Source: a plasmid
Strand: one strand, 5' to 3'
NCBI RefSeq assembly: GCF_057098645.1
Contig: NZ_JBXSPU010000002.1
DNA: 64,000 nucleotides
The stretch's first letter is position 1, and the number at the start of each line of letters is the position of its first letter. Made by a program: the position numbers. Shown in pieces: positions 52,901 to 58,900 of the stretch.

Positions 52901-55900
52901 AGGTGGGCAACAGCTCTGACGTCATTTCTGCATGGGATGATCGCCGATTAAAGAGAAAAGCGTTCATGGAAAGTCTTCGTGGCACAGGTAACTGAGGTCT
53001 GATATGGATTACAACATCTATACAGTTGGCGATATTGAATTTGTGTGGTCCGCCCTGAACGGGATTGCCCTGATTTTCTCACAATACACCGGTGTAAAAG
53101 CATTTCTAACGACGGCAGCGGTACTGGCTGGAGCCAGCCTGTTTTATAAAACGTGGCTTTGGCTGTTGAACCCGACAAAAGCAGAAGTGCCGATATTTTC
53201 ATGGATTCTTGGGCTGATTCTATTTTCGATGGCAATTGTTCGTGTGGATGTGACGATTGAATCAGTTAAGTCTGGTGAAGTGAGAAATGTCGATGGCATT
53301 CCTATTTTTATTGCGGCGATGGGAACTGTCACCACGAACCTTAGCCAGGGCTTACTCAAAGACTACAAAACGGCATTTGATCCACTGGCGCCGATCGACT
53401 TTGCCGCAACGACGCTTGATGATGACATTACTCTTGGTCCGATGATTCGTTTCGTTAAATTCTTACAATGGGGTGGTGACAGCCAGGGCTATTGTTCTGC
53501 GTTTCCCGAACCAGCCAGCGGGTTAGGTGCGATGAATGTGTGCGCGACAGTACAATCACTGGCCTATAACTGTCTCAAGGGAACCCAAAACTCAAGCGCA
53601 AAAATTGCTGGGAAAGAAACCATTTTTAACGATATTTTCTCTGCAAATATCGTGGATAGCATGGAACGCATTAATCAGGCGATGAAAGGTTCGCTGAAGA
53701 ACGCCTCTGCCAACATTGTCGGTGTGAATAGCTCAAAGTCTGCTACTTGTGAAGAGGTCTGGTCGACCGTTAAACAGGTAACGAGCACCCCAGAGGCTCG
53801 GCAGACGATTGCATTGATTGGGCAAACAAACGGTATCCTTGCTCCAGATGAGGCGGGAGGTGCAGCATCAGGAGCGAGCTTCACGGATGTAATGGCGTCG
53901 GCGAATGGCATGTACGGCAAAGCTATTGGTGCTTATGACGCGACGCTTAGTTTGTTCATCATGAATGAACTCCGTAATGGTGCCAGCAAGTACAAAACCC
54001 CACTCGGGCTGGCCTCGGATATGCAGTTGTTTGAGGCATCATTAAAGCGTACGAATACCATGGCATCTCAGGGGCAGCTCTGGCTGCAATTGTCCGGTGC
54101 AGCCATCGCGTTTCTTGAGATGTTTGCGTACATGGTTGCCCCATTTGCATTGCTCATGCTTTTGGCTCTCGGGGGAAATGGTGTGGCCGCTGCTGCAAAA
54201 TATCTCCAGCTTATTCTTTTCGTAAATATGTGGCCTATTACTGCGGTTATGGTGAATGCCTACGTGAAGAAAGTGGCGACCGCAGATCTTGATACATGGA
54301 GCACATTGAATAGTCAGAGTAACGCGGTGACATGGATGGGTTTGCCAGGGCTTGCCGAAACATACAGCTCTTATTTATCAGTAGCATCAGCACTCTATGC
54401 TCTTATCCCTGTATTGACGCTGTTCCTGATGACGCAATCCATTCATCCAATGATGAACGCGATGAAAGGAGTCACACCACCAGCGCCAGTGGACTCCAGC
54501 CACCTCACGCCGAAAGTGTGGGATGCGCCAAACAGCGGAAAATCATCGTTTGGGGATGTGAATCGTACCGCGCTGACAAGCACCGGCCAAGGATTCAGTG
54601 GTGGCGGGGCCATGGACTCCAGTAATTTCCGACTCGGTACGTGGAATGCCGGTTCAAGTATCGCGTCAAGCCAGGGGCAAGGGGCAGCATTTACCTCTTC
54701 AGCCATGAGCGCAGCAAGTAACACATTCCAGCAGGCCTTCAACCAGATGAGTGAAGTTGGCCGAACGGGGCAATCAGGCCAGCAATTTACCTCCAACCTG
54801 CAAAGCTTGAAATCATTTACTGACCAGGCCGGTGCAAACATCGCGAATAGCGTAGGGGCGAAGCATGGAATTAATTCGCAGCAATTAGCTGGCGTGGTGT
54901 CAAATCTTCTGCTCAATGGCAGTTTGGGACTTGGTGGTGAAGAAAAACTTGGAAAAGGAGGAGGAGGAGGTCTCGCTCAGAAAGTAATGGATAGCCTAGG
55001 AATAAAAGCGGGGGGGCAAGTTGGATCAGGGATCACGAAAAGTAATTCTGGGAATGAAAGTCTCTTAACTGATTTGAGTAAAGCTATTACGACTCAATTG
55101 ACTGAAAACTCAGGACTGACTGACCAAATGACTAAAGCGGCTGCTCAGATAAACAGTGATCAGTTTGCACAGACCAATGCATTCAAAGAAGCTGCAACAA
55201 AAATGAACCAGTCCACACAGACAATGGCCGAAAACTTGTCGACGTCACTTTCAACGAACGCCAGCGCCAATACTGGCATGACACTCGACTCAAGACAGGC
55301 TATCAACCTGGACAGATTCTCCGATTCTATCCGTAATAAAAACTTTAGCGATGAAGATGTGCGTAATTTTGCACGGAAAAATGGTCTTGATGAGAATGCC
55401 TTTATGGAGAAGTTCAATTCCTATAATGACACATTTAAGGCCAGCACTCAGTTGGGTTCACAACTCCAACGTACAGATGCGCTGGTGGCAACGACACGTG
55501 ACTTTAGTGAGCAAAAAATAGCGATTGATACTGCCCGAGGTGAAACGGCTGAGAGCAATAAACAGGATCTGCGTGAAACTTCCAGCCTGCTTAAAGGGCT
55601 GGTTGCTGACTTTGGCGGTAACGCTCAACAGATGCTGCCGATTACTAATCAGCTTGACCGAATCACTGGTGATGCCTCGGGTATTAACACGATTGCACAG
55701 GCGCAGGATCGCACCCCAGAACATGTAAATACGTCCAGCGTAATGAGCGCTGATCGTGTTGCTGACGTGGGGCAAAGTATGGATGCTCAGGCAAAAGCCG
55801 GGCTGGTACAAAACCAACAAAATGCTAACCAGCATGTTGGTGGACAAACTGAGTCTGGTGTAACTCCGTACAATGTGGACAAGATCAGCAAAGAAGATAT

Positions 55901-58900
55901 TCAGGGCATTCATCAAGGTAATGTAAATAAATCCTATAGCGAAGAGAACCAGAATGTGCTCTCGTCATTGGAGAAGAATACCCCTGTTGTGACGAATGAA
56001 ACTGTGGGAAGAGTTCAGGGGGCTGGGGTGGACGTTCAGCACGCCAACCAAACTTTCGACCAGTTACAGGCTGGTTCGGGCGGTAAGCATGCGACTTCGG
56101 GCATGGGTACTATCAGCGACAAACTGAATAATATGTACGGAGATAACCAGATACGCGGTATATCAGGCAACCTCCCGAATTATTTTGGCAGGATTGCAAA
56201 TGATCCTACCAAAAAGCCGGATGACAAACGTGCGGAACTGGCCGCACAAGCTGTGTTTACCTATGGCGCCAGTACAATGGCAACCGGCGCTGAGAAAGAA
56301 CAACTGAAAGCGGATACTCAAAATATCCTCTCCGAACTGAGTCACTATAACGTTCGCTGGGGGATGAACGATCTCCAGAATATCCATGAAGGTTTCAACA
56401 TGCATAACAAGGCTTCAGGTTCTCTTGACTCAGTTGTGAGGGCGAATCTTGGGGAAGGTGGTTCTGGCGGCGGGCTCGTTGGGCAACGAACCCAAACCAC
56501 GACGGATCTCCTTGTTGGTAATAAAATTGAGTCCAATACAGAACGTGGTGTTATTGGTAGTACGCTTTTATCGGGGCAGGAGAGTGTTGCCAGAGGACTT
56601 GACGTTATCGGAGCTAAACCTGTAAACGACATGCTCTCAGGTATGGGTATCCTGACCACCCCTTCATCTTTGGCAAACGATGCTTCGAATCCACAAAATA
56701 TGCCGAGCTCGCTATTGGGCAAGGTTGGAAATCACCTGCAAATGTCAGATGGTGTTAGCGAGGTGACCAGCAGGTATAAGGATATGGGGGGGGATGGGAT
56801 CAAGGCGTATGAGACTGCATCACAAAACTCAGAACGTGCGATTCGTCAGCAACTGACCGATGATCCACGTTTTGGGCCGGATAAAGCAGATGCATTCGTG
56901 AGCTTTATGAAGTCAAACCTGAATAATACAAATGAACCATATCAGTCGAGAATTGAGAAAGCTAAAAGCTGGCTGAATGAAAATAAGAAGTAAAAGTAAG
57001 TAGTAGCTGATAAAGGCCGTACTCTCTTTTGAGTACGGTCTTTTTTTGCTTGCATCACCCTGATTCAAATTTCCTCACCAAATACAGGTCACCCGGCACA
57101 CTAAGAAAATGTGCATTTCTTCTGTTCAAAATGAAAATTGAGAGAAAAGTAACTTTTCTGAATCGACTGATGCTTTAGTGCCTAGGCCATAGCGCATCAG
57201 AGGCTTTGGTTGTATGGAGGGTGTGGAAAAGTTACTTTTTCAATAAAAGCGGGTCATCAGCACATTATATCTGGCTATCAGGTCCGTTAGATCCTTTTCA
57301 TTAACCCCGGTGTAATAATCTGTACGAAACAGGTGCGGGTACTCTGGAGGAAACAGGGTCGCATCGTCATCAAGGCAGATAAAGGCTTTTACTTTGTGTC
57401 TGGTGACGAAGTCCTCACATTCAGCTGCACGGACTCCTATACTTCCTGAGGGGAGATACAGGGATGGGGTTGCTCCAATTACCCTGTCTCTGTATGGCGA
57501 GCGGAAAAGTGACTTTAGGTAAGTGATACTGCCGCACTCTCTCCATGAGCTTGATATAACGATGAACATTGAAGGACTCGCGTCAAGTAACCTCTCAATC
57601 AAATGCATCCTCTCGAACGATTCATTCTGACATTTGTGGACTACACCATCAAAATCCAGGAAAAGAACAACATGGATTGATGGCAGAGGACCCCATAATC
57701 CAGCGGTTATTTCTTCATGAGACAATATTCCATCCACGTCTTTATTTTTGGGCAGCTGCGGTGAACTGCATAAATTGAACAGGAATTTATAAATTGACTG
57801 GAGCATCGTTAACCTTTTTCTCAGGACGTTTTCATTCTCTAAGAGCCGCATTGTTTATGGCTACGAAACAACTAATAAAAAATTGGAGAGTAGGGTCGTA
57901 TTTTATTCAGGAAGATTTTTTACAATATGCCCGTTGTACTGGGGCTTAGGTTGCGTCCACTGATATAATTCGTCCATTCCATTTCGGCGCTGAATCCGGC
58001 GATTGTATTTGATCATGAAGTTGAAGATATACGTCGCCCGGACCTTAGGGGTTTTGCTGTTGTAATCGGCAATCCCTTCAAATACGTTACCCTTCCGGTC
58101 AACAATCTTCCGGTAAAGCCACCAGGTGCCCACCCAGAAACTGGCACAGGCGTCATAGGCCAGCACCCGCCACGTAACAGACGGAAAATGGTCGCGTATT
58201 TCCGGCAGGTTGGACGAATTGATCTGCATAGGCCCAATATCATAAGTGCCATTTTTATTACGGCTGAACGTCCCGACTTTTCCGCCCTCATTATCAAAAA
58301 GCGTAAAGACCAACTCCGCATCAATCCCGAAAAAACGGGAGGCATCGGTAATGCACTGCGTGTAGATCTCAACAGGAACGGGAATAGGTTTCACATCGTC
58401 TACTGGTGGTATAAACACGAGATAATCTCCGCTGGAATTACGTTCTGGATATTCTCCCATATCGTCGTCAAAATTTTTTTTGCTATAGGGGGGAATTTTT
58501 CCCCTTAAGCGAATTAGGCAGATTTTTTCGCATGATAGTATTAACACTCCATTAAAGGAGCTGAAATGAATAAGACTATCAAGGCATCATTATTTTTACT
58601 GGCATCCTGTACGGCCTTGAGTATGAATGCCCAGACAGCGAACACTGACGTGCTTCCCGATGCTGCACTGAAGAAATTAAGAGAAGTGGGCTTGTCTATC
58701 GAGCATATTGAACCATCGCCGGTAAAAGATATTTATACCGTCATTTCAAGAGAGGGCGTGAGCTACGTCAGCAAAGATGGCGATTACATTTTCACCGGGA
58801 GCTTGTTTCATGTGAACGGGAAAGATGTGGAGAACACAACTGAGCAGGCTATTCTGAAAGGTGTCAGGGAGTTCGCCACTAAAACAAAATCCATCGAATA

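Follow-up and report, generated by a model that had tools for sequence, protein, structure and literature searches.

Identification of the Gene as trhG

The TraG protein of the F plasmid acts in stabilising mating pairs, in assembling the pilus, and in entry exclusion that depends on TraS. For R27, an IncHI1 plasmid, trhG was reportedly needed for pilus formation and transfer, according to a mutagenesis study of that gene. F TraG has 938 amino acids (aa), and TraG of the IncA plasmid pRA1 has 1201 aa. TraG proteins of 1205 aa and 1135 aa have been described for IncC plasmids and SGI1, respectively (PMC5389848). Furthermore, proteins that join a polytopic N-terminal part to a hydrophilic C-proximal domain of large size have been defined as extended VirB6 proteins (PMC12857230). 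In the present study, a plasmid-borne stretch of 64,000 nucleotides (nt) was analyzed (contig NZ_JBXSPU010000002.1, RefSeq assembly GCF_057098645.1; hereafter, the window). It carried an open reading frame (ORF) at 53004–56993 on the plus strand, which a preliminary description had called TraG-like. The ORF list and the translation showed that it was real, with an ATG start, 1329 codons and a stop. It is the trhG gene of an R27-type IncHI1 plasmid, and its product is very probably the member of the TraG family (an extended VirB6) in the F-type type IV secretion system of the H-pilus.

All 3990 nt of trhG matched many IncHI1A plasmids, including pYPE10-190k-tetX4, at 100% identity. The identical coding sequence (CDS) of pYPE10 carried the accession WP_010892329.1 and was positioned after trhH. 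The same accession was found directly after trhH in R27 (NC_002305.1, 113294–117283). Therefore, the ORF is a full-length orthologue of, and indeed is, R27 TrhG itself, the very protein that had been named for comparison, and not merely TraG-like. The window protein and R27 TrhG agreed in accession, length (1329 aa), and Tra1 position after trhH, with no difference in the protein. The exact protein was present on at least 1000 contigs. The gene is an already known conjugation gene, and the finding is largely ordinary.

TrhG exceeded F TraG by 391 aa, in agreement with the earlier figure of about 400 aa. It was unusually long compared with F TraG, but not within its own family, where 78 of 79 full-length clusters, at 33–94% identity, had 1302–1332 aa. 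The lengths in four IncHI sublineages were 1329 aa (also in the 92.5%-identical variant), 1316 aa (IncHI2), and 1322 and 1308 aa (two Klebsiella-type lineages of 33–34% identity). The sole exception among the 79 clusters was P0025, an IncHI2 protein of 1241 aa from which 75 aa are deleted in frame. The surplus relative to F TraG is a fixed norm of IncHI-type plasmids, and the window protein showed both marks of an IncHI-type TrhG, namely about 1300–1330 aa and a clade-specific distal region. In addition, an R27-type TrhG of 1158 aa (P0110, WP_251988316.1) ended exactly after L1158, within the second Gly cluster described below. The Shewanella aestuarii plasmid pPN3F2_1, which was typed non-mobilizable, carried a TraG_N protein of 2123 aa (record 124672–131043; L009 3992–9497+).

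Domain Structure and Comparison with F and IncA TraG

TraG_N (PF07916) was the only Pfam domain of TrhG, and its score of 105 bits against a cut-off of 36.1 (E = 6.4e-30) placed the protein in this family. The TrhG orthologues scored 102–119 bits, and F TraG, in which the domain spans aa 3–444, scored 385 bits. From Pfam, hydropathy, and conserved Cys residues, the VirB6-like TraG_N domain of TrhG was assigned to about aa 1–490 (53004–54473, plus strand). Hydrophobic helices were located near aa 61–79, 361–389, 401–421, and 458–480, with none after aa 480, and they were followed by 839 polar residues. This layout was that of VirB6 and extended VirB6 proteins such as R388 TrwI, which possess a polytopic hydrophobic N-terminal part and a large hydrophilic C-proximal domain, whereas a minimal VirB6 of about 300 aa lacks the C region. 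The conserved Cys164, Cys180, Cys190, and Cys249 lay in the N-terminal domain, and the C region contained no Cys. The N-terminal domain was 91% identical to IncHI2, and its ratio of nonsynonymous to synonymous substitution rates (dN/dS) was 0.03 against the 92%-identical orthologue. By analogy with VirB6, TrhG may act as a pilus-assembly platform.

The comparison of domain boundaries with F TraG, which had been suggested earlier, was performed by blastp and hhalign. The two proteins were collinear to about aa 640 of TrhG and aa 622 of F TraG, and nothing was aligned beyond. In blastp, TrhG 321–646 paired with F TraG 288–626. The proximal C region (aa 491–640; 54474–54923, plus strand) could still be aligned with F and IncA TraG and is homologous to them. 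It ended in an anchor motif common to TrhG (SVGAKHGINSQQ) and F TraG (SYAKAHNISNEQ), where the posterior confidence of hhalign peaked before falling to zero; the family-to-family alignment likewise had zero confidence past about F 622. Homology over the whole of F TraG* (F aa 452–938), the C-terminal domain through which IncF TraG interacts with TraS and TraN, was not found, and only F 549–614 aligned, weakly (E = 0.049).

F TraG resembled TrhG in its TraG_N domain, its traF/traH/traG neighbourhood, and its polar, Cys-free C-terminal half, but the identity was about 21–23% and limited to the first ~640 aa. The TraG proteins of IncA/IncC plasmids and SXT/R391 (about 1190–1205 aa) shared with TrhG the MOBH/MPF_F backbone, the traF-traH-traG order, and a long polar C region, although they were about 125 aa shorter and only ~21% identical. 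Among these, pRA1 TraG was closer to TrhG than F TraG was (hhalign probability 97.5%, E = 8.6e-12; blastp aa 3–724).

Composition and Repeats of the C Region

The C region had been described as a low-complexity, Gly/Ser/Gln/Asn/Ala-rich region with short repeats. The richness was confirmed, as these five residues made up 46.5% of the C-terminal 839 aa. It was not peculiar to the excess over F TraG, since the share was 46.3% in the C-terminal half of F TraG; that of pRA1 TraG was 51.7%. The flagged length and composition of trhG are thus family norms and signal nothing new. The low complexity did not hold up: a SEG-like scan marked only 96 of the 839 residues (11%), at aa 548–575, 630–662, 743–758, and 1146–1164, and the 40-residue entropies elsewhere in the C region were comparable with those of the N-terminal domain. 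The string quoted as a repeat, GGEEKLGKGGGGGLAQ, was present at aa 644–659, but only once, and self-BLAST gave no internal protein repeat in TrhG, so this candidate was rejected. The sole repeat in trhG was found at the DNA level by Tandem Repeats Finder, an (AGG)5 triplet microsatellite at 54956–54970 (plus strand), which codes for the Gly652–656 run and is length-polymorphic in frame. In pSAL4596-1 it was (AGG)4, one unit fewer, with a shorter Gly run and the frame kept.

Distal C Region

After the Gly-rich segment that follows the anchor, 639 residues remained in TrhG (aa 691–1329; 55074–56990, plus strand) compared with 276 in F TraG, without detectable homology. Therefore, about 363 of the 391 extra residues (~93%) are distal and do not lie in the Gly-rich patch. 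When aa 541–1329 were searched exhaustively with phmmer against 1.84 billion representatives, only 27 matches were returned, all of them IncHI-type TrhG or fragments, with no F-type protein among them. On the basis of hhalign and this search, we rejected homology between the distal region and F TraG*. No match of the C region was obtained in Pfam, NCBIfam, PDB sequences, or Foldseek-PDB, and TrhG had no sequence or fold match among solved structures.

Against the 92%-identical orthologue, dN/dS was 0.18 over aa 541–1329 and 0.02 over aa 781–900. Across 17 relatives, the conservation was lowest at aa 631–690 and 961–1050, and a clear conserved island was seen at 781–900. An AlphaFold2 model of aa 481–1329, built on 23 sequences, had a mean predicted local distance difference test score (pLDDT) of 59, and helix was predicted for 64% of its residues and for 70% of those in the distal region. 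The pLDDT was at least 70 in about aa 771–880, 1061–1180, and 1221–1329, and was low in aa 481–540, 641–690, and 891–1040. The first of these predicted modules, the conserved helical island (aa 771–880; 55314–55643, plus strand), had a pLDDT of mostly 70–86 and was 84–100% identical to IncHI2 in windows within aa 781–900. It was followed by a second variable stretch (aa 901–1050; 55704–56153, plus strand), with 25–39% identity across the family and a pLDDT of 28–53; its segment 1001–1040 was 32–35% identical to P0005 and P0006, two IncHI2-like relatives of 76–78% identity. The second predicted helical module (aa 1061–1180; 56184–56543, plus strand) had a pLDDT of 79–89 over aa 1061–1130, contained conserved motifs such as QAVFTYGASTMATGAE, and included a second small Gly cluster, LGEGGSGGGL, at aa 1149–1158. 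The C-terminal helical module (aa 1221–1329; 56664–56990, plus strand) was the most confidently predicted (pLDDT 74–91), with a conserved D[DS]PR[FY]GP and a C-terminal W/FL..N[KR]K. On these data, aa 691–1329 is specific to the clade and shaped by purifying selection; most of it is predicted to be helix, with three modules split by a variable stretch. TraG* of R100 was about 72% helical by circular dichroism, although predictors call half of it disordered (PMC9797247), and the helicity predicted for TrhG fits those data.

Alternatively, the C region might be a low-complexity, disordered spacer of which the length alone matters. The polar composition, the lack of Cys, and the lack of any domain or fold match are consistent with this, as are the pLDDT below 50 in about 37% of the model residues and the constant length while identity falls to about 20% in Klebsiella-type plasmids. 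However, strict low complexity was limited to 11% of the region, and the dN/dS of 0.02 over aa 781–900 was at the level of the membrane domain. Moreover, motifs were kept down to 33% overall identity, helix was predicted for 64–70% with three modules at pLDDT 70–91, and circular dichroism has shown that R100 TraG*, which has a similar composition, is folded and helical (PMC9797247). A mere spacer is accordingly very unlikely, and this model was rejected for most of the C region; it fits only aa 641–690 and perhaps 901–1050. The preliminary description had considered that orthologues might share the length of TrhG and that the region might be simply a conserved linker. The first part proved true, whereas the second was at odds with the constrained, predicted helical modules and the two variable stretches.

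Gly-Rich Patch and Exclusion Specificity

Between the anchor and the distal region lies a Gly-rich, indel-prone, hypervariable loop at aa 641–690 (54924–55073, plus strand), with a pLDDT of 24–37 in the model, which predicts a loop. It was the least conserved part of TrhG, with an identity of 0.26–0.29 and gaps across the 17 relatives. In all six close relatives, the lowest-identity 40-aa window fell inside aa 641–700, and the patch carried most of the indels. It also had the highest dN, 0.153 (dN/dS 0.22) against the HI1 variant and 0.222 (dN/dS 0.52) against the 94%-identical Salmonella allele P0001. Other 60-codon windows mostly had a dN/dS of at most 0.15, and only 961–1020 was comparable (0.57). 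No 60-codon window had a dN/dS above 1, the maxima being 0.52 (661–720) and 0.57 (961–1020), and no positive selection was found. In 210 IncHI1 records at 99% identity or above, the patch was invariant except for one 3-bp AGG indel. The most divergent of these records had 33 mismatches, evenly spread, and cassette swapping of the patch among circulating IncHI1 plasmids was therefore unsupported. The 75-aa deletion of P0025 removed the entire patch and sat between two "..ASQ" motifs. Compared with P0001 (L010 3001–6996), trhG showed a mosaic dS of 0.09–0.82 per 60-codon window along the whole gene, which points to past recombination among IncHI1-like lineages that was not confined to the patch.

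F TraG likewise has a hypervariable, Gly-rich segment, at about aa 623–662, directly after the shared anchor motif, and the least conserved window among close F-like TraG proteins was 601–660. The window itself carries a truncated F-type traG, whose product shared 91% identity with F TraG and differed from it mostly at 617–662. The region of F TraG responsible for TraS specificity is 610–673 (PMC9797247). With the same anchor and the same kind of variable segment, the TrhG patch is the positional counterpart of this exclusion determinant.

The preliminary description had supposed that the divergent extension may set partner specificity. For the extension as a whole, nothing in our analysis supports a role in partner or exclusion specificity. 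A narrower proposal would be that the patch is a donor-side determinant of exclusion or partner recognition, read by a recipient protein as TraS reads F TraG 610–673. The variability of the patch agrees with this proposal, since it was the lowest-identity window in six of six close relatives, the indel-rich minimum across 17, and the site of the highest dN, with a dN/dS of 0.22 and 0.52. So do its place directly after the anchor and the fact that the matching segment of F-type TraG is both the least conserved window and the TraS-specificity region (PMC9797247). Furthermore, SGI1 evades IncC exclusion by replacing TraG (PMC5389848).

In contrast, one report (PMC11493245, citing Gunton 2008) attributes IncHI1 exclusion to EexA and EexB, needed in both donor and recipient, and the recipient-species specificity of R27 maps to the TraN tip and OmpA (PMC13104618). 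Therefore, a specificity role of TrhG would at best be limited to the patch. An exclusion partner of TraG has been established in IncC and SXT (EexC/Eex; PMC5389848, PMC11493245), but not for TrhG. No credible traS-, eex-, or eexC-like small membrane gene adjoined trhG, which is followed by a hairpin and an opposite-strand HAD-domain gene, unlike F, which has traS, and pRA1, which has an eexC-like ORF. The latter, a polytopic membrane ORF of 120 aa at the expected eexC site, lies convergent downstream of traG (L013 42158–42520, minus strand) and is annotated as hypothetical; no such gene stood there in IncHI1. In addition, dN/dS stayed below 1, the patch did not vary among the 210 IncHI1 records apart from the single indel, and P0025 is a natural IncHI2 variant that lacks the whole patch in frame. 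A flexible surface loop without a specificity role would give an identical pattern. A specificity determinant in the patch was hence considered unlikely. It is equally doubtful that the patch corresponds, in IncHI plasmids, to the segment of F TraG that TraS recognises, being read for example by EexA in the recipient inner membrane and defining IncHI exclusion groups, with (AGG)n and the indels supplying alleles.

G Tracts and Disrupted Alleles

The G7 and G8 tracts reported for the gene were present, at 55010–55016 (codons 669–671, Ala-Gly-Gly) and 56786–56793 (codons 1261–1263, Met-Gly-Gly), both on the plus strand and both coding for Gly-Gly. Such tracts could allow slipped-strand phase variation that switches trhG, and conjugation, on and off; two of the five G tracts of at least seven bases in the window fall in trhG, and disrupted trhG alleles exist. 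However, synonymous-codon shuffles of trhG gave a mean of 0.92 tracts of at least seven G, and two or more occurred with P = 0.22, so the number was at the chance level given the Gly-Gly content. The tracts were also not conserved: neither the 92%-identical orthologue nor that of IncHI2 had them at the corresponding positions, and the former has GGGAAGTG where the G8 tract stands. The disrupted alleles arose otherwise than by tract slippage, one through a tandem duplication of 124 bp at nt 2140 and the other through truncation at L1158, and the sole length polymorphism found was the in-frame AGG unit. With no conserved homopolymer that is polymorphic out of frame, trhG was rejected as a phase-variable (contingency) gene, phase variation is extremely improbable, and both tracts are incidental. 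The duplication was found in p65COLEC-1 (NZ_CP070915.1, L007) after trhG nt 2140 (window 55143), where the frameshift that it causes leaves trhG annotated as two CDSs of 760 aa and 597 aa; the duplication may be a real inactivation or an assembly artefact.

Neighbouring Genes

The genes directly upstream of trhG provided the context of an F-type mating-pair-formation system. A TraF-like thioredoxin-fold gene at 50544–51590 (plus strand; Pfam TraF, 171.6 bits, and Thioredoxin_2), annotated as "thioredoxin family protein" in R27 and pYPE10, was the first gene of a traF-traH-traG-type cluster. It was followed by the TraH homologue trhH at 51574–52995 (plus strand; Pfam TraH, 201.8 bits), annotated under that name and ending with a TGA at 52993–52995. 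A putative ribosome-binding site, GAGG (52994–52997, plus strand), overlaps this stop 6 nt before the ATG of trhG. At 19 nt past the trhG stop, a hairpin of 13 pairs followed by a T run (57012–57043, plus strand) resembles a terminator and may function as one; a hairpin consensus scan gave one site against 0.3 expected. The traF-like/trhH/trhG cluster ends with trhG, the start of which is coupled and which is followed by the terminator-like hairpin. The same gene order is present in F and pRA1, and the plasmids matching trhG were typed MPF_F. Downstream, the loci differ: F traG is followed immediately by traS and traT, whereas trhG is followed by the hairpin and an opposite-strand gene.

That convergent gene codes for 203 aa (57240–57851, minus strand) and matched Pfam HAD_SAK_2 ("HAD domain in Swiss Army Knife RNA repair proteins") at 80 bits. 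It is an odd neighbour for a transfer gene, and its position next to trhG was kept in IncHI1, the HI1 variant, and IncHI2. In IncHI2 plasmids, genes for an HNH endonuclease and a YrhA-family protein stood between trhG and the HAD-domain gene (pZ96-1_1, L003 7074–8651). This two-gene insert was not present in IncHI1 and resembles a toxin/immunity-type module.

The window also contained an IncF-type tra remnant at 8604–23901 (minus strand), alongside the IncHI1 Tra1 region. The remnant, all on the minus strand, comprised an N-terminally truncated F-type traG of 719 aa (18987–21146; 91% identical to F TraG 181–899), a traS-like ORF (18346–18861), traT (17583–18413), traD without its N-terminus (13873–15717), and traI split into two ORFs (12101–13873 and 8604–12104; 590 + 1166 = 1756 aa), as well as a rve/Mu-transposase ORF (22255–23901). 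The window thus had two TraG_N genes, trhG and the truncated traG. This makes the source an IncHI1 plasmid in which an IncF transfer segment is decaying.

Proposed Role and Implications

If F TraG and R388 VirB6 are taken as analogues, the N-terminal domain of TrhG would form an oligomeric base or stalk from which the pilus is assembled. The C region, which is large and hydrophilic, would occupy one side of the inner membrane, most probably the periplasmic side, where its helices may contribute to a central periplasmic cylinder and to mating-pair stabilisation together with F-type subunits such as the enlarged TraN (TrhN). The Gly-rich loop would be a flexible, exposed segment, free to vary in sequence. 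TraN has 550–660 aa in IncF, 880–950 aa in IncA/C, and 1050–1070 aa in IncH plasmids (PMC13104618), and trhN of R27 codes for 1058 aa. It may be speculated that distal TraG co-expanded with TraN (938/1205/1329 versus about 600/930/1058 aa in IncF/IncC/IncH), giving a size-matched TraG-TraN module.

Several points weigh against this picture. The membrane side is disputed: the label "periplasmic" used in the preliminary description derives from F, whose TraG* is called periplasmic (PMC9797247), whereas the exclusion determinants of SXT TraG are reported to lie in the cytoplasm (as cited in PMC11493245). The C region of TrhG would also come out as cytoplasmic if the three hydrophobic helices that follow a Cys-containing loop were naively counted. 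Hydropathy and charge reasoning gave conflicting orientations for TrhG, and in the R388 structure most of the VirB6 "transmembrane" helices are actually in the periplasm (PMC12857230). Furthermore, the AlphaFold2 models were weak, with a mean pLDDT of 45 for aa 1–560 in addition to the 59 for the C region. The model of aa 1–560 was too poor to give a topology, and the module boundaries and topology of TrhG are therefore approximate. The link to TraN comes solely from the parallel size classes.

What the large C-terminal extensions do in extended VirB6 proteins has been stated to be unknown (PMC12857230), and the analysis of TrhG does not answer this question. It does provide a map for experiments, in which the homology to F TraG ends at about aa 640, the 50 most variable residues follow, and three constrained, predicted modules lie beyond. 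IncHI plasmids are major carriers of multidrug resistance (tet(X4), mcr, NDM), and their transfer machine includes TrhG as a subunit of an essential type.

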